A stretch of DNA of 28,273 bases from a virus (IMGVR_UViG_3300050821_010409:94160-122432); one strand, 5' to 3'. Numbered from the stretch's first letter, positions 5,023-20,523 are shown. The notes: generated from the letters alone by a model not told the origin. Numbers and translations are program-made.

Positions 5023-5180
5023 GACGGTTCCTTTCTCCCGTGACCGGTGATCCGGTAACAGTGGCAGCACAGCGCAGGGAGCTGGCCGCCGTCGTACTTG
5101 CGGATGCGCGCGCTGGGCCGGCAGTGCCACTGCAGGCGGCACGTGGTGGCCGCGCGCAGGCGGTGCCACAGTTCCGTCAT
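5019..5180 (-). CDS. small Cys/His-rich protein (53 aa, not in ORF track)
   Basis: MTELWHRLRAATTCRLQWHCRP...LCCHCYRITGHGRKEPS; overlaps both neighbours by 4 nt. Confidence 0.6.
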   Translation of the reverse strand: MTELWHRLRAATTCRLQWHCRPSARIRKYDGGQLPALCCHCYRITGHGRKEPS

Positions 5181-6334
5181 GACGGTTCTTTCCTTTCAGT
5201 CTCTCCCAGTATTACAGCAAGCTCCGCCTTGATGGCGCGTGCCTGCGGGGAATCCCAGCATGCGGTGGCCTCCAGGAACTGGCGGGCGGCACTGGCTGCT
5301 CCCGGGTCCGTGATCCGGCTCACGAGCATCAGCTTCTCCGCGAACGGCGCGGCTCCTGCTGGCGGCGCAGGCTGCGCGCGGATGATGTCGCCGGCGATGA
5401 CGAACAACGACCGGGGTGATGACGCGGCTTCTTCCTCCTTTTCTTTTTCCGGCACGGGCACGGGCGTGATGCCTGGCTCGCGCAGCCGCAACCGCGCCGA
5501 CCTGCTGCCGGGCAGCACGGCGTCCTGGGTCAGGAGCACGGCGTGCACGCCCGCTCCGGTTCCGGTGATCGAGAACCTGACGGGTGCCGCTGCCGCACGG
5601 TTGGTTTTCCAGGACGTCATCCGCCGTTCGCTCTCGCTGGCGGCCCCGAGCACGTACACGATGCGCAGGGCATCGGTCAGTGACTTGTTGCCGGCGATCT
5701 CGCCAGATTTCACAGTGTGGTGACTGATGATCATCGCCACCCCGGTCTCCCGGGTTACCGCCTGCAGTCCGTCAATGACGGTCCTGGCGGCGCGCGCGGA
5801 GCTGAGCGTGCTGCTGCACATCGCCAGCAGCGGGTCCAGGATCACCAGTCCCGCGGGCGGCCCGGCAGCATTCACCTCCGTGATGGCCCGCTTCAGCTCC
5901 GGGATGTTGTCCGGCAGCAGGAACGATGAGCCGTCCGGCAGCAGGGTCAGGTCGTGCACCAGGGACAGGTCCGCGCCCGCGGCCGCCAGCCGGAAGGCCA
6001 GGTCTTCATTAGCGTCATCCTCTGGCGCGATAATGATCACCGACTGCGGCTCGCGGCCAGCGGCCTCACCCGGGAACGGCTGCCCGCGGGTGGTGATCCC
6101 GGTGATCGCTGCCAGCAGCAGGCCCTTGCCTGTTCCTCCTGGCGCCGCGATCATCACCGGCGTGCGGTAGGGGATGACTCCCGGCCACAGGTAGCGAGCC
6201 GGGAGCGCGGGGATCTCGCTGAACGGGACGGCGAGCTGCCCGTCATCCCAGTGGGGGCTGGCTGCCTCCGGTGCCGTGGCATCGCCGCTGATCACGGTGA
6301 ACGGCGGGAAGCCCGGCACGTCCGGGATGCTCAT
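5177..6334 (-). CDS. AAA_25/RepA-like P-loop ATPase with extra C-terminal domain
   Basis: YLWPGVIP..TPVMIAAPGGTGKG (Walker A), LVILDP (Walker B), ISHHTVK; start moved to ATG 6334, coupled to upstream stop. Confidence 0.8.
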   Translation of the reverse strand: MSIPDVPGFPPFTVISGDATAPEAASPHWDDGQLAVPFSEIPALPARYLWPGVIPYRTPVMIAAPGGTGKGLLLAAITGITTRGQPFPGEAAGREPQSVIIIAPEDDANEDLAFRLAAAGADLSLVHDLTLLPDGSSFLLPDNIPELKRAITEVNAAGPPAGLVILDPLLAMCSSTLSSARAARTVIDGLQAVTRETGVAMIISHHTVKSGEIAGNKSLTDALRIVYVLGAASESERRMTSWKTNRAAAAPVRFSITGTGAGVHAVLLTQDAVLPGSRSARLRLREPGITPVPVPEKEKEEEAASSPRSLFVIAGDIIRAQPAPPAGAAPFAEKLMLVSRITDPGAASAARQFLEATACWDSPQARAIKAELAVILGETERKEPS

Positions 6335-6600
6335 GACGGCCGTGCTTCCTGCTGCGCCTCCTGCAGGGCCAGGGCCAGCTCGGCCTTGACGGCCCGCGCT
6401 CTTCGTCCCTTCTTGTGCTGCCCCTTCCAGCCCGCGGCGTAGCGCAGGAAAGCCGTGACGGCAGCCCTGCTGGCCGGGTCCGCTGGCCAGTCCGCGCAGG
6501 TCGTGGCCAGCATGCGGTCCACGAACGGCACCGCGCGCGGGTCCGGGTAGGGCCACCACTGGATGATCTCGCTGGCGATCACGCGAAGCGGGCGCGTCAT
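6331..6600 (-). CDS. phage-type hypothetical protein
   Basis: RPL..IA.EI...W....AVP....M...FL..A.GW.G...R.VKAEL pattern, which I recall from small phage proteins. Confidence 0.75.
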   Translation of the reverse strand: MTRPLRVIASEIIQWWPYPDPRAVPFVDRMLATTCADWPADPASRAAVTAFLRYAAGWKGQHKKGRRARAVKAELALALQEAQQEARPS

Positions 6601-9511: not shown

Positions 9512-9568
9512 CAGGCTGGGTGCCTGCGGCCACGGGCGGGGCATCCCGTCCGTGACCGCCAGCCGTCA
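9512..9568 (-). repeat. family A repeat, copy 5
   Basis: CAGGCTGGGTGCCTGCGGCCACGGGCGGG...CGTGACCGCCAG; ends in upstream stop. Confidence 0.9.
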
Positions 9569-10936
9569 GCTGCTGACCGCGCTCAGCATGGTGGCCAGGG
9601 CCGCGGTCCGGGGGCCGAGCCGGAACATCGCCACGCTGCTGGCGTCTTCTGCCGCGAGGCCCGCGGCGCGCTCGGCGTCGGTGAACCCGATGCCGGCGGC
9701 AGGCCCGATCCGGTAGGACTCGATGGGTGATGCTTGCGCTGCCAGCACCGGGCCATTACTGCTGCTGCGCCCGCGCCCGCGCCGGGGGCCATAGCTGAGC
9801 GAGTCGGTCAGCGCGGGCAGCATGTAGCCTGTGCACTGGATGGCCAGGTCGTAGGTGCGGTCATTGACCAGCACGCCACCGGGCACCGGCACCGGGTAGC
9901 CGGACTGCCCGGCCAGCCGCAGCCGGGTGCTCGGGCTGCTGGCGTTGCCTTCCAGGTACTGGGCCAGCCGCAGGTACCGGCCGCGCTTGCCCTCCCGGAA
10001 TTCGGAGCACGTCAGGCCGCTCAGGGCCGGCGCGTAGACGTCCACGCGCTGCACGCAGTCCAGTCCGATGGTGGAGGTGTGGCCAGGGGCGAGGCCCAGC
10101 AGGGACTCGGCAGCGCACAGCCCGCTGTTGCCGCCGCCGATGATCGCCACCTGAGCCAGCCCGCGCAGCGGGAACGGGGTGCCCATCCGGGCCATGAACT
10201 GCGGGAAGCTCAGTATCCGCTCGCCGTCGCCCTTGCTGGCCGGGTTGCCCAGGCCGCGCGCGTCCAGCACCCGGGCGCAGGAGAGGGTGCCTTCATTGGT
10301 GGCCAGCGTTATGGACTTGCCGCTGGGGCTGCTGACCCTGCCGCTGATGCTGGTGACGGTGACGCCCGGGGTCACGTCCGCGAATTGCGCCAGCAGCAGC
10401 CGGACCAGCCAGGCCACCAGGGCGTTGTCCGCGTACTCCTGTGAGGTGAGCATGGCCAGCGGCGGGAAGCCCGTCCCGGCCGGGAAGAAGTTCAGCCCCT
10501 TGTCCTGGTCAGGCAGCCCGGACGGGCCGGGCCGGTTGCGGGAGTTCAGCCAGAACACGGGCTGCATGCTCATCGCGAAGGCGCCCCCGACGCTCTCTGG
10601 CTCATTGCGCTCCAGGACGACGGGCTTGGGGAAGCCGGCCATGACGCGGCTGGCTGCGTAGACGGCCGCGTGGTAGCCGCCGCCGATGATGACCTCCCGG
10701 CCAGCCAGGTTCGTGAAGGCAGCTGCTGGCGGGCGCGACCAGTACTGCGTGAGCGCTGCCGTCATCAGCTGGCGCGCTTCGGGGACCATGGCGATCCCGG
10801 CCAGCTGCATTTCCGTCATGCTGGCGAAGTCGGCGGCGCGGGACGCGCACAGGGTGATCCCCTCCGACAGCCGCTTCTTGTCCAGGCACTGCTCGATCAC
10901 GTCCCGGATGACCGGGGCCAGTTCAGGCTCTGCCAT
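9566..10936 (-). CDS. FAD/NAD(P)-binding flavoprotein (monooxygenase/oxidoreductase-like)
   Basis: two dinucleotide-binding motifs VIIGGGYHA and VAIIGGGNSG, plus DARGLG and YDLAIQCTGY; start ATG 10936 after AGAAAGGA. Confidence 0.7.
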   Translation of the reverse strand: MAEPELAPVIRDVIEQCLDKKRLSEGITLCASRAADFASMTEMQLAGIAMVPEARQLMTAALTQYWSRPPAAAFTNLAGREVIIGGGYHAAVYAASRVMAGFPKPVVLERNEPESVGGAFAMSMQPVFWLNSRNRPGPSGLPDQDKGLNFFPAGTGFPPLAMLTSQEYADNALVAWLVRLLLAQFADVTPGVTVTSISGRVSSPSGKSITLATNEGTLSCARVLDARGLGNPASKGDGERILSFPQFMARMGTPFPLRGLAQVAIIGGGNSGLCAAESLLGLAPGHTSTIGLDCVQRVDVYAPALSGLTCSEFREGKRGRYLRLAQYLEGNASSPSTRLRLAGQSGYPVPVPGGVLVNDRTYDLAIQCTGYMLPALTDSLSYGPRRGRGRSSSNGPVLAAQASPIESYRIGPAAGIGFTDAERAAGLAAEDASSVAMFRLGPRTAALATMLSAVSS

Positions 10937-10969
10937 TGCCGTGTTCCTTTCTTGTCGTGTCCGCTTGTC

Positions 10970-11034
10970 CTGGCCGGACAGCAAGAAGCCCCTTTCCTGC
11001 GGTCAGGAAAGGGGCTTCCGGGCTGACGGGCCAG
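10970..11034 (-). repeat. family B hairpin (divergent copy)
   Basis: 14-bp stem GAAGCCCCTTTCCT/AGGAAAGGGGCTTC flanked by CAGC-AA and CGG-GCTG as in other B copies. Confidence 0.7.
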
Positions 11035-12142: not shown

Positions 12143-12586
12143 TCAGGAACGGCCGGAATAGGAACTGCGGAAGGTGCTGTGGTAGGAGCTGCCGGGGGCG
12201 CGGTAGATCACGCGGCCCTTGTTCACGTAGCTCATGCCCTGGTAGCTGCCACGGCTGCTGTTCGTGGTGAAGGAATGGGCGTGGTATACCACGTGGTAGA
12301 CGTCCGGTGCCCGGCGCAGCACGGCCGGGCGGGTGTAGGAGTACCGGCTGCCGGAGTAGGTGAGCACCGATCCGTAGTACACGGTGCTGTAGATGCTGAA
12401 CGGCACGAGGGCTGACGTGCCGTCGCTGTACTCCACGCAGTAATCGGGCTGCCCGGTCAGCGGGCTGGCGCAGGTGTAGGTGCCGACGACGTAGGGCGCG
12501 TAGTACTGGCCGTCAGTACAGGCTGCCAGGCTCGCCGCGAGCACGGCAGCCGTGATGGCGCTGCTGGCCCTGGTGATGATCTTCAT
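12143..12586 (-). CDS. putative lipoprotein
   Basis: MKIITR + hydrophobic stretch + LAAC lipobox; Tyr/Ser-rich body. Confidence 0.75.
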   Translation of the reverse strand: MKIITRASSAITAAVLAASLAACTDGQYYAPYVVGTYTCASPLTGQPDYCVEYSDGTSALVPFSIYSTVYYGSVLTYSGSRYSYTRPAVLRRAPDVYHVVYHAHSFTTNSSRGSYQGMSYVNKGRVIYRAPGSSYHSTFRSSYSGRS

Positions 12587-12612: not shown

Positions 12613-12669
12613 CAGGCTGGGCGCCTGCGGCCGTGCACGGGAAGGCCCGTGCACGACCGCCAGTGCCCA
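12613..12669 (-). repeat. family A repeat, copy 6
   Basis: CAGGCTGGGCGCCTGCGGCCGTGCACGGG...CCCGTGCACGACCGCCAGTGCCCA. Confidence 0.9.
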
Positions 12670-12673
12670 GTTG

Positions 12674-12853
12674 TCAGTAATGCCATTCCGTGCTGGACGT
12701 CAGCGCCATTGCCTTGCCGACGTCGGCTAGGGCTGCCTGGTAGGTTTCCTTGTAGGTAGTTGACTCGGGTGTGGTGAGGACGGCGCGGTTCAGCCGCGTG
12801 AGCGTTTCGGCTAGTACCCCCAGCTGGTAATCGGCGGTGTCAGCGATGCTCAT
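12674..12853 (-). CDS. hypothetical protein (59 aa, not in ORF track)
   Basis: MSIADTADYQLGVL...TSSTEWHY; ATGA overlap with upstream gene; AGAAAGGAAAAAG RBS. Confidence 0.7.
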   Translation of the reverse strand: MSIADTADYQLGVLAETLTRLNRAVLTTPESTTYKETYQAALADVGKAMALTSSTEWHY

Positions 12854-13065
12854 TCACTTTTTCCTTTCTGCAAGTGCGGTGTAACGAGGCGCTCATACTG
12901 GCGTACGTGATCGTCCATTCCGGCGAACTGGGCGAGCCTGTACAGGACTTCGAGGATCCCGTTTTCGTTGTCATTGTCCAGGCATTCCAGCCAGTCGCGG
13001 AGCTCGTCGTCCCAGGCGTAGCTGACTACGTCCGTGATGGCGGACAGCAGTTCCGGGCCTGTCAT
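12850..13065 (-). CDS. hypothetical protein
   Basis: 71 aa acidic ORF, RBS GAGGAAAAAG. Confidence 0.75.
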   Translation of the reverse strand: MTGPELLSAITDVVSYAWDDELRDWLECLDNDNENGILEVLYRLAQFAGMDDHVRQYERLVTPHLQKGKSE

Positions 13066-13094
13066 GCTTTTTCCTCGTTCCTGGCGCGGTTGCG

Positions 13095-13949
13095 TTACTC
13101 ATCAGGGACTTGCGACAGCACGACGGCGAACAGCAGCCGCGCCTCCTCCAGGATTTCCTGCCATGCGGGCGCCACGTTCGCTGGGGCACGCCCGAGCAGC
13201 GTGTAGTGGGTGAAGGAATCCTGGCTGTACCAGTAGTGCTGGCTGTACTTGCCATCCGGCTTCTCCCAGTCCGCGGTGGGCCCGTAGGTCCTGGCCCGCT
13301 CGCCGTACTGGGCGCGGATCACTAGCAGCCTGGCCAGCTCGGCCCGTTCGCTATCGGCCATGTCCTGGAGGAACGGCTGTGCCTTCGCTTTTTCCTGGCA
13401 TTTCTGGTACCTCGACTCCAGCGTCCGGTAGTCCGGCTCGATGTGGCTGAACACCGACCGGATGTTCCCGTCGTCACCCCATTCGTAGCCGTTGCCGCCG
13501 ATGAGCAGCAGGTGGTGCAGCACGTCTGTCCGGGTGGGGAAGATCAGCGGGTGCCACCAGATGCTGGACGCGATGAACAGCTCAGGGTCCGTGGCAGGTG
13601 CCATCAGCTGCGTGCTCGGCGGCGCTGCCGCGATGGCCTGCGGTGTCATCCGCGCCGGGTCGGCGGGCAGGTCCTGCAGCGGCTGCGGGCTGCGGCGCGG
13701 TTCGTAGCCGTGCGCGGCCTGCATCTCGTCATCCAGGGCCTGCGCGGCGGCCTTGATCTCCAGGAACCGGGCGCGCGTGACGCTGATGCTGAATGCCTCG
13801 TCATACAGGGACCGGGCGACGGGCACGGGGTAGTGCTTCCGGCTGGCCGGGATCGCTCCCGTTCCGCCGCCGAGGCTGTGCCGCCAGCCATTGCGCATGC
13901 TGTGCACGGGCAGGCCGTCTCGCCAGCAGACGAATGCGCTGGTGCTCAT
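13095..13949 (-). CDS. hypothetical protein
   Basis: 284 aa, RBS AGAAAGGAGG downstream of repeat A7. Confidence 0.85.
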   Translation of the reverse strand: MSTSAFVCWRDGLPVHSMRNGWRHSLGGGTGAIPASRKHYPVPVARSLYDEAFSISVTRARFLEIKAAAQALDDEMQAAHGYEPRRSPQPLQDLPADPARMTPQAIAAAPPSTQLMAPATDPELFIASSIWWHPLIFPTRTDVLHHLLLIGGNGYEWGDDGNIRSVFSHIEPDYRTLESRYQKCQEKAKAQPFLQDMADSERAELARLLVIRAQYGERARTYGPTADWEKPDGKYSQHYWYSQDSFTHYTLLGRAPANVAPAWQEILEEARLLFAVVLSQVPDE

Positions 13950-13979
13950 GGCAGCCTCCTTTCTTGCTCGATGTCAGTC

Positions 13980-14037
13980 CAGGCTGAGCGCCTGCGGCCG
14001 TGGGCGGGGAGTGCCCGTCCGCGACCGCCAGTACCCA
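13980..14037 (-). repeat. family A repeat, copy 7
   Basis: CAGGCTGAGCGCCTGCGGCCGTGGGCGGGG...GCGACCGCCAGTACCCA. Confidence 0.9.
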
Positions 14038-14061
14038 GTATCACCGAGTATGCAGGGTGCC

Positions 14062-15348
14062 TTATGCGGCCTGCTCGCCAGCGGGCCACGCAGCATGCTG
14101 GCTGACGCTCAGCTCCAGCGGCCGGCCGTCGTAGCGCGCCGTGAGCTCTTCGGGCGCGATGAGGTAGCTGCCTCCGGGGTTCACGTACATCGGGTCGCAG
14201 CTGAACGCGATCTTGCGGTAGGTCCAGCCCGCCAGGTGGGCCATGACCCGGGGCGCCGCGTAGCCTTCCAGCTCGCCGTACCCGTTGAACACGACGAAGG
14301 CGCTTGGTGCCAGGGTCTCGAATGTCGGCACCAGCTTTCCTGGCGCGTTGTACTGCAGGGGCAGTACCCAGGCGCGCCCGCTGACGTCTCCGTAGGAGCC
14401 GAACGTCAGCAGCCCGAAGCCGCCGTTGGTCTTCAGTGCGCAGCGGCTGTCCCGGTAGCTCGTCCACCAGCAGGATCCCTCATGGTAAAAGTCCCCGGGC
14501 GGCCGGTTCAGGTCCCGCGTGACGATGATCGTGACGTCCACGGGGTTGCTGTGGTCGCGGGCGATGCTGCCGATGCCCGACAAGTCGGCGGGCGCGAGCT
14601 TGAGGCTGTATTTCTTGTAGGCGAGGCTGCTCAGCCGCTTGGTGAAGTTTCCGGTCCTGGCCTGCCACTGGTTACCCAGCTCGTCCAGGGACCAGGCTAG
14701 TTCGCAGAGGAGGGCGCTTTCCTGCGCGCGCGCCTTGGCCATCAGGTAAGCCTGGATCTCCTTCAGCCCTTCGGGTGAGATGGCGCCCGCCGCCAGCGTG
14801 ATCGTGGCCTGCACGTCATTCGCCAGCAGTGCGCAGCCGTTATTGCGGAGGGTGAACGCGGGTTGCGGTGAGGAGCAGCAGGAGCCATCGTCCTCGTCCT
14901 CGTCCTCGTCCTCGTGGTCATGGTTGGCTTGGTCATTGTCGTGGTAGTGCCCCTCGCAGGGCTCGCAGTAGCTGTAGTCAGCGGCAAGGCACTGATCACA
15001 GACGTCCTCGGCGTCCAGCGTCCGGGTGAAGTGACCGCGGCTGACCGGGTACCGGTCGTCACAGAGGGAGCACGCTCCCCAGGAATCCCGGCACGAGTCG
15101 CAGACGTGCACGCTGGCGTAGGTGCGCACGGAGGTGAGCGCGTGTTCCCAGGCGGGAATGCCGCAGCCGTCACAGAAATCGACGTCATCGATGGCGGTGG
15201 GCTCGCTGGTGATCGTCTCCAGGTACTGGCGGAACTGGGCATTGCGGCTGCCCAGGAACGGGTCGTGCGTGAACCCGGTCCACAGCCCTTCTAGGTCCAG
15301 GTCGCCTGCAGCGACCTTGGGGACGGGGTCTTGCGCTTCTTGCGTCAT
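14062..15348 (-). CDS. multi-CxxC protein with SCWW/GRAW domain (paralog 1 of 3)
   Basis: six CxxC pairs, acidic linker, then conserved domain GSCWW...SRCALKTNGGFG...SGRAWV...FNGYG; start ATG 15348. Confidence 0.85.
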   Translation of the reverse strand: MTQEAQDPVPKVAAGDLDLEGLWTGFTHDPFLGSRNAQFRQYLETITSEPTAIDDVDFCDGCGIPAWEHALTSVRTYASVHVCDSCRDSWGACSLCDDRYPVSRGHFTRTLDAEDVCDQCLAADYSYCEPCEGHYHDNDQANHDHEDEDEDEDDGSCCSSPQPAFTLRNNGCALLANDVQATITLAAGAISPEGLKEIQAYLMAKARAQESALLCELAWSLDELGNQWQARTGNFTKRLSSLAYKKYSLKLAPADLSGIGSIARDHSNPVDVTIIVTRDLNRPPGDFYHEGSCWWTSYRDSRCALKTNGGFGLLTFGSYGDVSGRAWVLPLQYNAPGKLVPTFETLAPSAFVVFNGYGELEGYAAPRVMAHLAGWTYRKIAFSCDPMYVNPGGSYLIAPEELTARYDGRPLELSVSQHAAWPAGEQAA

Positions 15349-15374
15349 GGCAGGGCCTTTCTCGGGTGAGGTGA

Positions 15375-15439
15375 CTGGCCAGGACAAGGCGAGCGCCCGT
15401 TTCCGTGACAGGAAACGGGCGCTCGCCTTCTGCGGCCAG
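15375..15439 (-). repeat. family B hairpin
   Basis: perfect 19-bp stem AAGGCGAGCGCCCGTTTCC/GGAAACGGGCGCTCGCCTT (15386-15429) inside CTGGCC...GGCCAG. Confidence 0.8.
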
Positions 15440-15446
15440 GCGGGGG

Positions 15447-16430
15447 CTAGTCCTTGCTGAGCGAGCCTTCCTCGTCCTCCTCGTCACTGCCACCTGCCGC
15501 GGGCAGCAGCATGACCGGCGCGCTGGACAGTGCGCGCTCGGTGTAGCACGGGCAGTTCCTGAGGCTCAGGTAGCAGTCCTGGCAGCACCCGCACACGGTG
15601 CAGGAGTTCGAGTCGGGGTCGACGGCCGCCTGGGTTCGGCAGACCTCGCACTCGTCCTGGTCAGCACTGCCGAAGCGGTGGTAGCCCGGGATGCGCCACT
15701 CTGGCTCGTGCGGCATCGTCACGTCCGCGTTCTGCGCGTGGAACCGCTGGAACCGCCCCACCATGGCGAGCGTGTCATTGAGGTAGGCGTAGCCCTGCGG
15801 CGAGTGGTAGTTCCCCCGGTAGCCCACGCCCCAGTTGAAGCCCTTGACGCCCAGGTGGTCCAGCACGGCGATGTCGGAGAAGCTGCCCTTGCCCACGGTG
15901 GCGCCGCTGGCCCGCACCGCCCTCCGGCTGGCCTCGTTCTCGTACTGGTACATCACCACGTCCGTGCCCATGCGGTCGAACTCGATGATCCAGTCGTAGT
16001 CCTTGCCCGGCGTGAAGTAGGCAGCCGTGGACTCACACGATTCCTCGCCCACGCTGAGCAGCCAGTCGCAGGTGATGCCGAGCCGTGGCAGCATGCGCAA
16101 GATGACGTACGCGCCGAGCCGGTCATCCAGGGAGCCGCCGGTGACGACCGGGCCCATCTGGGTCATCCGGAAGTGCGGCGTGCGGCGGTCGTCCGTCACC
16201 ACGGTGTCCAGGTGCGCGACGGCCAGCACGCGCGAGCCGTTGTCGCGGAAGTGGTAGTAGTCGGGCTGCGCGTCCTTGGGCGCCCACCGGGAGCGCTGCT
16301 CCACGTAGGTGGTCTGCATCCCGAAGGCCGTGCCGAAGCTGGCTTCTGGCAGCGTGCAGATCCTGGCCAGTTCGCCTTGGTTGTAGGCGAACCGGGCCTG
16401 GCGGGTGAGGGAGTCCCTCTTACGGGTCAT
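15447..16430 (-). CDS. M28/M20-like zinc metallopeptidase with C-terminal Cys-rich tail
   Basis: AHLDTV, LDDRLG, GEE, EFDR and YH metal-ligand/catalytic motifs in the expected order; start 16430 (RBS GAAGGAAG) or 16490. Confidence 0.8.
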   Translation of the reverse strand: MTRKRDSLTRQARFAYNQGELARICTLPEASFGTAFGMQTTYVEQRSRWAPKDAQPDYYHFRDNGSRVLAVAHLDTVVTDDRRTPHFRMTQMGPVVTGGSLDDRLGAYVILRMLPRLGITCDWLLSVGEESCESTAAYFTPGKDYDWIIEFDRMGTDVVMYQYENEASRRAVRASGATVGKGSFSDIAVLDHLGVKGFNWGVGYRGNYHSPQGYAYLNDTLAMVGRFQRFHAQNADVTMPHEPEWRIPGYHRFGSADQDECEVCRTQAAVDPDSNSCTVCGCCQDCYLSLRNCPCYTERALSSAPVMLLPAAGGSDEEDEEGSLSKD

Positions 16431-16486
16431 GGCTGGCTTCCTTCTCTTCCTTCTCGGGCGTGGTTCTTCTTCATGGGGGTTGCGGG

Positions 16487-17515
16487 TCATGGCGCCGTTG
16501 CCCCTGCCTGCAGGGCAGCTTCCGCGGCTCGCAGGGCAGCTTCCGCGGCTCGGGCCTTGCGCGTGGCGGCAGCCTTCTTGGCAGCTGCTGACCGGGCTTC
16601 CCGCCGGGCTGCCGGGTGCTCGTCATCGAATAGGGCAGAGTGCTGCAGGACGGACAGCCGGAGCGCCCAGCCTCCTGCGTAGGCTTCCGTGAGCTCTTCA
16701 GGCGCGACGAGGTAGCTGCCCCCGGGGTTCACGTACATCGGGTCGCAGCTGAACTCGATCTTGCGGTAGGTCCAGCCCGCCAGGTGGGCCATGACCCGGG
16801 GCGCGGCGTAGTCCTTCAGGCTGCCGTACCCGTTGAACACCACGAAGGCGTCTGGCGTCACGGTCTCGAATGTCGGGACTAGCTGCCTGCTCCCGGTCAT
16901 GCGCCGGCGTAGCGGCATCACCCAGGCACGGCCGGACACGGCCTGCTCATGCTTGTCCCGCCCCAGCGGGTTGCGCAGGCTGGGCGCAGCTGCCACGGCC
17001 ATTTCGGTGAAGGCCCGCAGCCCGAAGCCGCCATTGGTCTTCAGCGCGCACCGACTGTAGCTGTAGTTGCTCCACCAGCACGAGCCGGGGTTGCCGAAGT
17101 TCACGGAGGGCTGGTTCAGCTGCCGGGTGACCGCGATGGCGACGTCGACCGGCTTGCTGTGGTCGCGCGCGATGCTGCCGACGTGCGCCAGGACTTCCGG
17201 CGCGAGCTTGACCTGGCGGGTTTTGTACGCGTGGCTGCCCAGCCGCTTGGCGTAGTTTCCCTGGGGTGTCTGCCACTGGTTGCCCAGCGTGTCTTCCAGG
17301 GTGACGGCCATTACCTGGAGCTGGTAGCTCTCTTCTGAGCGGTACGGCATCACCCGGGCCAGCCCGACTAGGTATTCCCTGATCTTGCCCAGGCCGTCCC
17401 GGGTGATGAGGCCCTCAGGGAGGGTGATCGTGGTCAGGGCGTCGTTGGCCAGTGGCGGATGGCCGTCATGGCGGACCGCGAATTCCTTTTGCGGTGACCG
17501 GCAGCAGTAATTCAT
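16487..17515 (-). CDS. SCWW/GRAW domain protein lacking the CxxC N-terminus (paralog 2 of 3)
   Basis: same conserved domain as 14062..15348; Ala/Lys-rich tail containing a 21-bp tandem duplication at 16510-16551. Confidence 0.85.
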   Translation of the reverse strand: MNYCCRSPQKEFAVRHDGHPPLANDALTTITLPEGLITRDGLGKIREYLVGLARVMPYRSEESYQLQVMAVTLEDTLGNQWQTPQGNYAKRLGSHAYKTRQVKLAPEVLAHVGSIARDHSKPVDVAIAVTRQLNQPSVNFGNPGSCWWSNYSYSRCALKTNGGFGLRAFTEMAVAAAPSLRNPLGRDKHEQAVSGRAWVMPLRRRMTGSRQLVPTFETVTPDAFVVFNGYGSLKDYAAPRVMAHLAGWTYRKIEFSCDPMYVNPGGSYLVAPEELTEAYAGGWALRLSVLQHSALFDDEHPAARREARSAAAKKAAATRKARAAEAALRAAEAALQAGATAP

Positions 17516-17555
17516 GACTGCTGGCTTCCTTTCTTGGTTGCGCTTGCATCGCCTG

Positions 17556-17630
17556 CTGACGGCAGGCAGCGAAACGGCCCGCTTCCCCCCGTGGTGCAGG
17601 AAAAGCGGGCCGCTCGGGCTGCCTGGTCAG
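17556..17630 (-). repeat. family B hairpin
   Basis: CTGAC..CAGGCAGC-GA-AACGGCCCGCTT...AAGCGGGCCGCT-CGG-GCTGCCTG-GTCAG; includes upstream stop. Confidence 0.8.
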
Positions 17631-17815
17631 GTGGCTGGCAGGGCCTGCCCGGTTCTTGCGGCATCGATCTTGGCCTTCATGGCGGCCTGCCAGTCAGTTA
17701 GGGGCCTGGTCCCGATGCCAGCGAGCTGCGCGTGCACCCACAGGTGGTGGGCGTGCGCGGTCCCGCATGCGGTGCAAGTACCGTCAGGCGCCAGCCAGTG
17801 GATCCCGTTCTTCAT
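17627..17815 (-). CDS. small CxxC protein
   Basis: 62 aa, CTAC..H.HH; ATGA overlap with upstream gene. Confidence 0.65.
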   Translation of the reverse strand: MKNGIHWLAPDGTCTACGTAHAHHLWVHAQLAGIGTRPLTDWQAAMKAKIDAARTGQALPAT

Positions 17816-19077
17816 GCTGCTGCCCTGTCTCTTTTCTCAGCCTGCTCCTGGGCGAAGAGGCTCGCGTGCTGCCGCGTGCTCAGGATCAGGGACCTGCTGC
17901 CGCTGTACTGCGTGGCGAGGTCTTCAGGCGCGACGAGGTAGCCACTGTCGTTGTTCACGTACATGGAGCTGCAGCTGAACCCGATCTTGCGGTAGGTCCA
18001 GCCCGCCAGGTGCGCCATGACCCGGGGCGCCGCGTAGCCTTCCAGCTCGCCGTACCCGTTGAACACCGCGAAGGCGTCCGGTGCCAGGGTCTCGAATGTC
18101 GGCGCTAGCCTCCCGTTCCCGGCCCGGCGCAGTGGCATGACCCAGGCCCGGCCGGAGACCGATCCCCATTGGTCGAACGTCCGCAAGCCGAAGCCGCCGT
18201 TGGTCTTCAGCACGCACCGGCTTTCCCGGTAGTTGCTCCACCAGCAGGAATCCCTGTGGTAGAAATCCCCGGGCGGGCGGTTCAGGTCCCGGGTGACGTC
18301 GATCGTGACGGTCACGGGGTTGCTGTGGTCGCGTGCGATGCTGCCGACGTGCGACAAGTCAGCAGGCGCGAGCTTGTCGCCGAACTTCTTGTAGGCGAGG
18401 CTGCTCAGTCGCTTGGCGAAGTTTCCCGCCGGGGTCTGCCACTGGTTGCCCAGTGCCGGCAGGTCCCTGCTGAGGAGCCGGCGCCCGGCGTAGTCCAGGT
18501 AAGCGCGGATGTCTTCGAGCCCCTCGGCGGAGATGACGCCGCCGGGCAGCGCGACCGTGGTTCGCACGTTATTGGCCAGCGTCGCGTCGCCGTCATTGCG
18601 GATGCTGAACGCGCGCAGGGGGGAATAGCAGCAGGAACCGAGGTCGTCACCGTGCTCGTGGTGGTGGGTGTCGCCTGCGTCGTAGTAGCCGCCACAGTCA
18701 GCGCAGTGCTGGTAGTGGCGGCCCAGGCAGTCCAGGCAGACGTGGTTGCCGTCCAGCACCTGGGTGAACCCCGGGAGCCGGCTGGCGCACCGGGAGCACT
18801 CACGCCAGGCATTCCAGCAGGCCGGGCATGCCAGCCGGCCATTACCGTACGCGAGCAGTGAGTACCCCCATGCGGGAATGGTGCAGTTACTGCAGGACAC
18901 GAGGGTGTCCACCGCATCCGGGTCGCTGACCAGCGTCTTCAGGTACAGCTGGAATTCCGCGAGCGACCTTGCGTACGATACCCATGAGGTGCCCCAGAAG
19001 GGGGCCCACAGTGCGGGCAGGTCCAGTTCGCTGGCCGGTACCCGGGTGACGGCTGCCTCTTCACCTTCTTCTGCCAT
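17812..19077 (-). CDS. multi-CxxC protein with SCWW/GRAW domain (paralog 3 of 3)
   Basis: start moved to ATG 19077 after AGAAAGGAAG; six CxxC pairs then conserved domain. Confidence 0.85.
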   Translation of the reverse strand: MAEEGEEAAVTRVPASELDLPALWAPFWGTSWVSYARSLAEFQLYLKTLVSDPDAVDTLVSCSNCTIPAWGYSLLAYGNGRLACPACWNAWRECSRCASRLPGFTQVLDGNHVCLDCLGRHYQHCADCGGYYDAGDTHHHEHGDDLGSCCYSPLRAFSIRNDGDATLANNVRTTVALPGGVISAEGLEDIRAYLDYAGRRLLSRDLPALGNQWQTPAGNFAKRLSSLAYKKFGDKLAPADLSHVGSIARDHSNPVTVTIDVTRDLNRPPGDFYHRDSCWWSNYRESRCVLKTNGGFGLRTFDQWGSVSGRAWVMPLRRAGNGRLAPTFETLAPDAFAVFNGYGELEGYAAPRVMAHLAGWTYRKIGFSCSSMYVNNDSGYLVAPEDLATQYSGSRSLILSTRQHASLFAQEQAEKRDRAAA

Positions 19078-19117
19078 GACAGGCGCTTCCTTTCTTGGTT
19101 GCCGTGCGGGTGCGTCC

Positions 19118-19185
19118 CTGACCGGGACAAGGAAAGCGCCCGTTTCCCCTTGCCGGGAAAGCGGGCGCTTAGCTTCTGGGGTCAG
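19118..19185 (-). repeat. family B hairpin
   Basis: CTGACC...AAGCGCCCGTTTCCC...GGGAAAGCGGGCGCTT...GGTCAG; includes upstream stop. Confidence 0.85.
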
Positions 19186-19580
19186 AAAGCAGCGCTGATT
19201 TTCTTCCAGATGGCGGGGAATGGCGTAGCCTGGTCGTTCAGCGTGGCGAGCGTGGTGTATTCCGGACGGCTGCTGCTCATCCAGATCCGGGGGTTGGGGG
19301 AAGGCAGCTGCGCCCATTCCACGATGGCCTGGGGCAGTACCTCGCTGTCGGCATCGGTGGCGTCCGTGACGCTGACATACTGGTAGATGTTGCTGCCCGG
19401 GATGAGCTCACGCCGCACGATTCCTGCCAGCACTCCCCGTTCGCACAGGCCGCCGAGGCAGCAAAATGTGTCATTGCTGCCATCGGTGGCAGCGCCTGCA
19501 TGGCGCAGCGCGCCGCCTCCTTGCCGGTTGGCGTTGGCGAGCAGCCATTCGCCCCACTCGGCCTTGATTTCCGGGTTCAT
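19182..19580 (-). CDS. CCLG-motif phage-type hypothetical protein (tandem paralog 1 of 3)
   Basis: MNPEIKAEWGEWLLANA...TFCCLGGLCE. Confidence 0.85.
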   Translation of the reverse strand: MNPEIKAEWGEWLLANANRQGGGALRHAGAATDGSNDTFCCLGGLCERGVLAGIVRRELIPGSNIYQYVSVTDATDADSEVLPQAIVEWAQLPSPNPRIWMSSSRPEYTTLATLNDQATPFPAIWKKISAAF

Positions 19581-19609: not shown

Positions 19610-19633
19610 CAGGCAGCCGGGGCTGCGAGTCAG
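19610..19633 (-). repeat. shrunken family B derivative (outer stem only)
   Basis: CAGGCAGC-CGGG-GCTGC..GTCAG resembles the flanks of copy 17556-17630 without the inner stem; includes upstream stop. Confidence 0.55.
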
Positions 19634-20007
19634 AACGTGCTGTTGATCGCGTCCCAGATGACCGGGAAGGGGGTCTCGTTGTCGTTCATCCCGGCGAGCG
19701 TGCCCACTCTGACACAGGGGTCGTCGTTGGGCAGTTCCGCCCATTCCACGATGGCCCGAGGCAGCGTGGCCATGCTGAAGTCGGTGGCGTCCGTGACGCT
19801 GGTGTACCTGTAGCGGTTGTGGCCGGGGATCAGCTCACGGCGCACAATTCCTGCCAGCATTCCCAGTTCGCACAGGCCGCCGAGGCAGCAGAATGTGTCC
19901 TCGCTGCCATCCGGGGCAGCGCCGGCGCGGCGCAGCATTCTCTTTCCTTGCCTGTGGGCGTTGGCGAGCAGCCATTCACCCCAGTCAGCCTTGATTTCCG
20001 GGTTCAT
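19630..20007 (-). CDS. CCLG-motif hypothetical protein (tandem paralog 2 of 3)
   Basis: start ATG 20007 after AGAAAGGAAAAC; TFCCLGGLCE. Confidence 0.85.
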   Translation of the reverse strand: MNPEIKADWGEWLLANAHRQGKRMLRRAGAAPDGSEDTFCCLGGLCELGMLAGIVRRELIPGHNRYRYTSVTDATDFSMATLPRAIVEWAELPNDDPCVRVGTLAGMNDNETPFPVIWDAINSTF

Positions 20008-20055
20008 TTCCTGTTTTCCTTTCTTGCGCATTGCTTTGACGGCTAGGGCAGCGCG

Positions 20056-20436
20056 TCAGAAAGCGGCGTTGATCCTGTCCCAGATGACCGGGAAGGGGAT
20101 CGTGTTATCGTTCATCACGGTGAGCGTGTAACCCGAGGATGTCAGGGGGTTGACGGAGGGCAGCTCAGCCCATTCCACGATTGCCCGGGGCAGCCTGACC
20201 GTGCTGACGTCGGTGGCGTCCGTGACGCTGGTGTACTGGTAGAGGCGGCTGCCCGGGATGAGCTCACGCCGCACGATGCCGGCAGCCGCGCCTAGCTCGC
20301 ACAGGCCGCCGAGGCAGCAGAAGGTGTCATCGCTGCCGTCTGGGGCTGCGCCTGCACGATGCAGTGCGCCGCCCCCTTGCTTGCCGGCGTTGGCGAGCAG
20401 CCATTCGCCCCACCCGGCCTTGATGTCCTGGTTCAT
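20056..20436 (-). CDS. CCLG-motif hypothetical protein (tandem paralog 3 of 3)
   Basis: start ATG 20436 after AAGGAAGGAAAAAG; TFCCLGGLCE. Confidence 0.85.
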   Translation of the reverse strand: MNQDIKAGWGEWLLANAGKQGGGALHRAGAAPDGSDDTFCCLGGLCELGAAAGIVRRELIPGSRLYQYTSVTDATDVSTVRLPRAIVEWAELPSVNPLTSSGYTLTVMNDNTIPFPVIWDRINAAF

Positions 20437-20470
20437 TGTGCTTTTTCCTTCCTTGCGCGTTGCCCTGCTG

Positions 20471-20523
20471 GACAGCAAAGCGCTCCGTTCCCGGCAGGCG
20501 GGAGCGGAGCGCTAGGGCTGCTC
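20471..20523 (-). repeat. family B hairpin
   Basis: CAGC-AA-AGCGCTCCGTTCCC...GGGAGCGGAGCGCT-AGG-GCTG. Confidence 0.85.

Follow-up and report, generated by a model that had tools for sequence, protein, structure and literature searches.

What is a zinc peptidase doing among three copies of a protein domain that family databases do not recognize? The question is raised by a stretch of viral DNA of 28,273 nucleotides (IMGVR_UViG_3300050821_010409:94160-122432), called the window in what follows, whose positions 14,062 to 19,077 hold one peptidase gene and three paralogous genes, here named A, B and C. The viral record to which it belongs, that of a large soil phage, is linear, 122 kb long, with a GC content of ~66% and a CheckV completeness of 81% (IMG/VR), and the window is its final 28 kb. 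The answer proposed here, to which we give a probability of roughly 50%, is that the locus carries a phage-specific two-enzyme cassette, in which a Cys-dependent orphan domain and a clan MH partner would act on a shared substrate. The original prediction for this locus had suggested a modification/demodification system, which stays as one guess among several.

The genes of the module, in the order in which they are transcribed, are the following (GC3 is the GC content at third codon positions, and it is 0.85-0.92 for A, B, C and the peptidase):

17812..19077, minus strand: paralog C, 421 amino acids, with five CxxC pairs, then a CC motif, then the core of ~290 residues; called on the contig as the 421-residue protein P0017.
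17627..17815, minus strand: a small open reading frame (ORF) between C and B, 62 amino acids, with CxxC and HxHH and a GC3 of 0.81.
16487..17515, minus strand: paralog B, 342 amino acids, the core alone, beginning at the CC motif; of the three copies it is the one that the peptidase gene directly follows.
15447..16430, minus strand: the peptidase, 327 amino acids from the ATG at 16430, with a Cys-rich zinc-ribbon tail.
14062..15348, minus strand: paralog A, 428 amino acids, with five CxxC pairs, an acidic linker, the CC motif and the core; called on the contig as the 428-residue protein P0011.

What do the three copies have in common? They can be aligned over ~290 residues, with core identities of 68% (A-C), 62% (A-B) and 61% (B-C), a likeness far beyond chance, and every motif quoted in the original prediction is found in all of them: LGNQWQ, GSIARDHS, SCWW, SRCxLKTNGGFG, SGRAWVxPL, FNGYG and APRVMAHLAGWTYRKI. 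The same prediction had counted six N-terminal CxxC pairs in two of the copies; the count is five in both A and C, plus the CC that opens the core, and B is indeed devoid of fingers. The latter copy keeps the CC, and at its end residues 301-339 form a helix rich in Ala, Lys and Arg. Outside the core the paralogs diverge faster: the N-terminal finger regions of A and C are 39.6% identical, against 68.3% for their cores. This is compatible with the idea that the variable fingers set target specificity. In a tree of 34 family members A, B and C fall together, with A and C as sisters, at negligible support (0.10). Sister pairs occur on other contigs too, for instance P0007 and P0033, so that the duplication of this gene is a recurrent event, and besides the window two or three paralogs are present at the loci L048, L053 and L061, with an expansion at L013 as well.

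As for the fingers themselves, they appear to be LIM/ZZ-like. The profile matches are weak: the ZZ of RSC8 (E 5e-4) and the LIM of CRP1 (E 0.003) among PDB profiles, and Pfam ZZ at 9.5e-6 for one family member, while the finger proteins of the window stay below every Pfam family cut-off for LIM/ZZ. The likeness to the binuclear treble-clef fingers of the LIM/ZZ/RING type thus consists of the CxxC spacing and these matches; in contrast to such fingers, the phage arrays are longer (at least five CxxC pairs), made of cysteines only, variable in number and found at either end of the core, N-terminal in the high-GC phages and C-terminal in the lower-GC ones.

The domain had been called unrecognized, and so it is: no match to the core exists in Pfam, PHROG or NCBIfam. 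The family is large: clustering at 50% identity gives no fewer than 607 clusters, of which 197 reach E<=1e-30, and 244 proteins have E<=0.001 among the candidates scored in 90% clusters. All of its members are unnamed, and nearly all come from metagenomes or from viral contigs, the longest of them measuring 166 kb; strict patterns, run over 185,579 species genomes, matched only two contigs of metagenome-assembled genomes (MAGs). Neither DNA nor tblastn searches returned anything from phage and plasmid collections when the module, paralog B, the window peptidase and the lower-GC locus L047 served as queries. Among longer proteins no fused forms were found, and the long members of the family have no informative Pfam domain, save for Kyano_Gp96 and a rare Lsr2 DNA-binding domain (one member, P0250). 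A published description of the module was found neither by literature keyword nor in the overview of jumbo phages PMC7824862.

In the core, across 147 sequences that are 34-58% identical to B, the residues S145, C146, C156, K159, R196, W198, N228, Y230 and N263 are invariant, and C4, C5, R91, R131, N134, R155, R167, R240 and H292 almost so; the set includes no invariant Asp or Glu. Such a pattern looks typical of an active site. Which of the cysteines matters is suggested by the divergent relatives. A lower-GC group, labelled "mid", is without the CC motif, has Asp, Glu or Lys at C156, and does not keep K159 and H292; it still has S145, C146, [W/F]148, R155, R167, R196, W198, N228, Y230 and N263. 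When this group is taken together with another divergent one ("div", described below), the only cysteine kept is C146, the Cys of SCWW, and C4, C5, C156, K159 and H292 are specific to the subfamily. C146 is therefore the sole universal cysteine, because the CC and C156 are not retained in the lower-GC relatives. The CC, C156 and perhaps H292 are probably a structural metal site of the high-GC subfamily, by which the core and the N-terminal fingers would be connected. The original prediction had picked the same SCWW Cys as a possible nucleophile. Its universality fits a catalytic role, and it supports C146 as a functional, probably nucleophilic residue and argues against a mere ligand role.

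The second gene is easier to place. It matches PHROG 4191 ("peptidase") at 2.9e-11; against Pfam, the window peptidase scores 12 bits for M42 and 12.1 bits for M28, both under the cut-off, and its ortholog at locus L006 clears the cut-off of M42 (24.6 vs 23.2). With the numbering of a 347-residue ORF, H93xD95, D122-D123 (within DDRLGAY), E149-E150, D172 and H229 are invariant in 11 orthologs. This succession of HxD, bridging Asp, Glu-Glu, Asp and His is the same as in clan MH, that is, in M42 enzymes (TET/FrvX, e.g., 5ds0), M28 aminopeptidases and M20 enzymes (DapE/ArgE/PepT), and the DDRLGAY of the window peptidase aligns with the DDRIGAF of the M42 structure 5ds0. Judging from these alignments, the complete co-catalytic ligand set of the clan is present, along with the general-base Glu. 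The peptidase had been foreseen as M28/M20-like, and an assignment to the M42/M28/M20 type (clan MH), with metal ligands intact, agrees with that.

Some features set it apart from its relatives. M42 enzymes have a PDZ-like/dimerization insert of ~100 residues, which follows the HxD motif and precedes the bridging Asp. In the window peptidase D95 and D122/D123 are separated by only about 27 residues, and because the spacing from HxD to Asp is only ~30 residues this insert appears to be missing; the Pfam match spans only positions ~112-190 of the 292 of the M42 profile. The spacing from the Glu to the Asp ligand is 22 residues, which we take to be that of M42. A phmmer search with the window peptidase gave no PDB match. 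Compared with clan MH enzymes the protein is much smaller, has ~70 unique N-terminal residues and, often, a zinc-ribbon tail. The tail, also pointed out at the start, is real: its Cys-rich pattern (CxxC..CxxCGCCxxC..CxC) is kept in several aligned orthologs, and it is absent or very different in L005, L009, L011, L012 and L013. All in all, the protein is probably a minimal two-zinc clan MH (M42/M28-like) exopeptidase or amidohydrolase, predicted to be active; it is a minimal variant of a known clan, and itself new. As for its start, the first ATG, at 16490, overlaps the stop of B (ATGA) and is probably wrong; the ribosome-binding site points to 16430.

Is the encounter of these two genes an accident of one genome? 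Starting from the domain, an ortholog of the peptidase (44-62% identical) is immediately downstream, on the same strand, in 10 of 11 loci, which are nine IMG/VR contigs and one Terracidiphilus MAG contig; besides the peptidase, none of the other window genes is conserved near these loci. Starting from the peptidase, the core was detected by hidden Markov model in 29 of 36 IMG/VR loci, and in 27 of these it is directly upstream, abutting and on the same strand. The survey of neighbourhoods had been named from the outset as the test by which the pairing could fall, and the linkage turned out to be very strong. Because the same pair adjoins in dozens of otherwise unrelated phages, domain and peptidase are a real two-protein phage cassette, conserved and essentially restricted to phages.

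A few loci deserve mention for what precedes the peptidase. At L046, L051, L052 and L059, the "div" group, the upstream gene codes for 405-433 residues and has the same finger array and the collinear motifs SSCMTG, ARALLW and DRIYP; profile-profile comparison gave a probability of 98.5% with the fingers and a P of 0.038 without them, so that these are probable, not proven, members. At L045 the gene upstream of the peptidase is a beta-helix repeat gene. The peptidase of L041 and L042, two AT-rich viral contigs (46 and 182 kb), has an unrelated N-terminal fusion partner of ~290 residues, and the gene before it codes for a protein of 827-881 residues that ends in a class-I methyltransferase domain.

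Another question is whether comparable arrangements exist elsewhere. Enterococcus phages of ~140 kb (H1, EF1, EF5 and VRE9_1-4) have two paralogs of phrog_18912, an unannotated family of ~335-400 residues and unknown function, on either side of a PHROG 4191/34186 peptidase with a zinc-ribbon tail, a trio analogous to the module of the window. In phage H1 (L074, OP534061.1 3437-6762) the two copies are 399 and 335 residues long, with the motif W-S/T-S/T-C, and between them is a "putative peptidase" with a CxxC tail. The motifs of phrog_18912 (W-S-S-C, RRxGxF and SRSYP) are collinear with those of the "div" group, and the Enterococcus phage peptidase is 29% identical to a distant ortholog. Homology between phrog_18912 and the core of the window is not significant (hhalign P 0.3-0.4), and the trio is thus an experimental lead rather than a family member.

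The locus had also been likened to the gene pairs of amidoligase and peptidase that Iyer, Abhiman, Burroughs and Aravind reportedly described in phages in 2009 and proposed to add and remove peptide tags. The likeness consists of a putative amide-bond-handling enzyme, borne by a phage, that travels with a peptidase. Kinship was not found: the core is without an ATP-grasp, GS-like or Amidoligase_2 domain and without invariant acids, amidoligase profiles in Pfam/NCBIfam have no match, and the peptidase is of clan MH and not Ntn/GATase-II-like. ATP-dependent ligase chemistry is unlikely because the family has no invariant Asp or Glu. The core also resembles the aminoacyl-tRNA-protein transferases ATE1/Bpt, which have Cys-rich N-terminal metal sites and a CC motif with a Pro/aromatic/Arg stretch after it, and which belong to the wider class of acyltransferase folds. 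The searches speak against this identity: PF04377 has no match in the genome, even at E 10, and the probability from hhalign with six Bpt sequences is 0.1%.

How might the core fold? The AlphaFold model of paralog B from a 34-sequence alignment has a predicted local distance difference test score (pLDDT) of 87.8, and its SCWW loop is below 50. With 147 sequences, the model of residues 1-300 reaches a pLDDT of 91.9 and a predicted template modelling score of 0.83, and the SCWW loop is now confident. The elements of residues 123-288 follow the order b1-a1-a2-b2-b3-b4-a3-b5-a4-b6, with the Gly-rich NGYG loop between b4 and a3. Foldseek against the PDB gave no match (the best E values were 0.057 and 0.14); the matches in BFVD are unnamed phage proteins alone, whose predicted folds are related (E 4e-6 and 1.5e-4), and those to ADYC in the ESM Atlas are at chance level (0.77-0.79).

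Two known folds offer themselves for comparison. The first is GNAT, represented by RimI-type 7n1l, NatD 7kd7, MEC-17 4hkf and YhbS 4rs2: residues 123-288 share its order of strands and helices, the structural matches to the beta region are all GNATs, and the Gly-rich loop of the core, NGYGxLxGY, is at the junction of strand and helix where GNATs bind the pyrophosphate of coenzyme A (CoA). This loop does not read as the Q/RxxGxG/A typical of the CoA-pyrophosphate loop of GNATs, and no GNAT match at E<=1 occurs in Pfam scans of 112 members. The GNAT-likeness, seen in the model, is a tentative lead, with the odds somewhat against it. The second comparison regards papain-like cysteine peptidases, whose GSCWAF motif resembles the [GDE]-S-C-W-W of the core. 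A papain/transglutaminase-like site has its Cys at the N-terminus of a helix and, downstream on the beta-sheet, a conserved His and an Asn or Asp. In the core, H292 is specific to the subfamily, and no His is kept throughout the superfamily; among the structural matches listed, which are dominated by the helical lobe, there are no papain-like chains.

What could such a pair do? In the reading preferred here, the first gene would code for an enzyme made of the orphan domain of ~290 residues joined to a LIM/ZZ-like finger array, with S145-C146 of paralog B as the putative key residues among the invariant Arg, Trp, Asn and Tyr. Most likely it would use a thiol to transfer an acyl or aminoacyl group, or would reverse such a transfer, the substrate being a peptide or linked to a protein. 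The finger arrays would recruit the substrate, and the peptidase encoded by the second gene would trim or remove the amino-acid moiety from the same substrate. In this phage the first gene has been triplicated and has diverged into two copies with different fingers, and one that is fingerless and has a basic tail.

Several points weigh against this proposal. Genes that supply a donor or form a pathway are not conserved nearby. The linkage, strong as it is, shows a joint function and not a joint substrate. No link to a known enzyme emerged: the scan of the same 112 members, taken singly, against Pfam at E<=1 gave no recurrent match, and the searches of the PDB by sequence and profile matched the finger region alone. 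Comparison of the core with ten GNATs by hhalign is not significant (P 0.13-0.19), and beside C146 there is no invariant His, Asp or Glu that could serve as an evident base.

Other readings must then be considered, and the first two to be weighed are both unlikely, to about the same degree. The core might modify nucleic acid, by attaching an acyl or amino-acid-like adduct to tRNA or to a base of DNA or RNA, or by removing it, with the clan MH hydrolase trimming the adduct. Such a role would recall Mom of phage Mu, a protein of GNAT fold by which adenine is modified. The many invariant Arg and Lys, together with Trp, Tyr and Asn and the lack of an invariant acid, would suit such a substrate, as would the helical lobe of the core, the basic Ala/Lys-rich helix that ends paralog B, the position of the module next to replication genes and the Lsr2 domain of P0250. 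However, this fusion is rare, clan MH peptidases have no known role in base modification, and the Pfam inventory of the genome reveals no base-hypermodification pathway, be it thymidylate-synthase-like genes, a kinase or others of this kind.

The second possibility is that core and fingers are not enzymatic at all, and instead work as a substrate receptor, adaptor or regulator, through which selected proteins of host or phage would reach the peptidase; the paralogs would then be alternative receptors. The obligate adjacency to the peptidase would be natural for such a partner, and so would the recurrent expansion of paralogs with variable fingers, in the window and at the four loci named above, and the faster evolution of these fingers; in eukaryotes, fingers of the ZZ/LIM type are protein-binding modules. 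However, the most conserved part is the core and not the fingers, and ten polar or aromatic residues invariant in the 147 sequences, together with a universal Ser-Cys, exceed what an adaptor normally needs.

More doubtful still is a redox or metal-dependent domain in which C146 is a metal or iron-sulfur ligand with C4, C5 and C156 instead of a thiol nucleophile: all four are invariant in the high-GC subfamily and present in B, which lost every other finger cysteine, and the SCWW loop is poorly modelled from the shallow alignment, but C146 cannot need the other three as co-ligands because they are lost or replaced in the lower-GC relatives while it stays, and the deeper alignment models the loop with confidence. 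Least probable of all is a cassette that writes protein N-termini, where the peptidase would trim the N-terminus and the GNAT-like Cys enzyme would then add an acyl or aminoacyl group to the new end, the fingers of different paralogs would pick different host or phage targets, and each target would end up marked for host N-degron proteases or with its function blocked.

The surroundings of the module complete the picture. Transcription runs leftward across its whole region; the module is part of a long operon read in this direction, and the replicative helicase lies downstream of it. An AAA_25 primase/helicase gene is found a few kb downstream of the module in the window, L008 and L009; in the window, the minus strand downstream carries the AAA_25 helicase at 5177-6559 and a FAD/NAD(P)-binding protein at 9566-10984. 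The related phage locus L007 has a GMC oxidoreductase (12625-14445) at a similar distance from the module, and no conserved link was seen. Closer to the module, at 12143-12586 (minus strand), is an ORF of 147 residues with a lipoprotein-type signal (…AASLAAC) and a Tyr/Ser-rich body, with no family match. By its Pfam inventory, the genome outside the window is that of a typical large tailed phage, with a family-A DNA polymerase, helicases, an NlpC/P60 lysin, NUDIX, a glycosyltransferase, methyltransferases and a Cas12f-type TNB domain.

The operon also has a recognizable punctuation. A ribosome-binding site of the GAAAGGAAG type recurs in it and precedes the starts of the peptidase (16430) and of C (19077), the latter together with a GC-rich hairpin, and the start of A (ATG at 15348) is preceded by a perfect 16-bp hairpin and a ribosome-binding site. 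GC-rich stem-loops occur at 15392-15440, 17560-17625 and 19110-19165, directly past stop codons and just ahead of the GAAAGGAAG ribosome-binding site of the next gene; an example is the perfect 16-bp inverted repeat GCGAGCGCCCGTTTCC/GGAAACGGGCGCTCGC 3' of the peptidase. The start ATG of the 62-residue ORF overlaps the stop of paralog C (ATGA); this ORF has no Pfam match, and it may be a small zinc-binding partner or no gene at all. Directly upstream of C, the same operon has a second triplet of paralogs in tandem, at 19182-19580, 19630-20031 and 20056-20478 (minus strand), of 132-140 residues, which have the motif DTFCCLGGLCE in common; the copy at 19182-19580, the only one covered by the scan, matches phrog_18067 (function unknown) at 5.9e-8.

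What does all this mean for phage biology? The cassette is widespread and undescribed, and its partner domain is probably enzymatic. With its hundreds of clusters, the core is among the larger conserved phage protein families, linked here to no fold or function, and its range goes from the high-GC phages of soil to, possibly, the cultivable phages of Enterococcus, and early and replication genes surround the module. Should the core turn out to fold like an ordinary acetyltransferase, and its partner to be a housekeeping enzyme, the interest will be only moderate. Nevertheless, a conserved Ser-Cys in such a setting of invariant Arg, Trp, Asn and Tyr suggests an enzyme chemistry that would be new, and the repeated duplication with changing fingers suggests an adaptable targeting of host or phage macromolecules. 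The reward could be a new modification for host takeover or anti-defence, and possibly a new enzyme for protein engineering.

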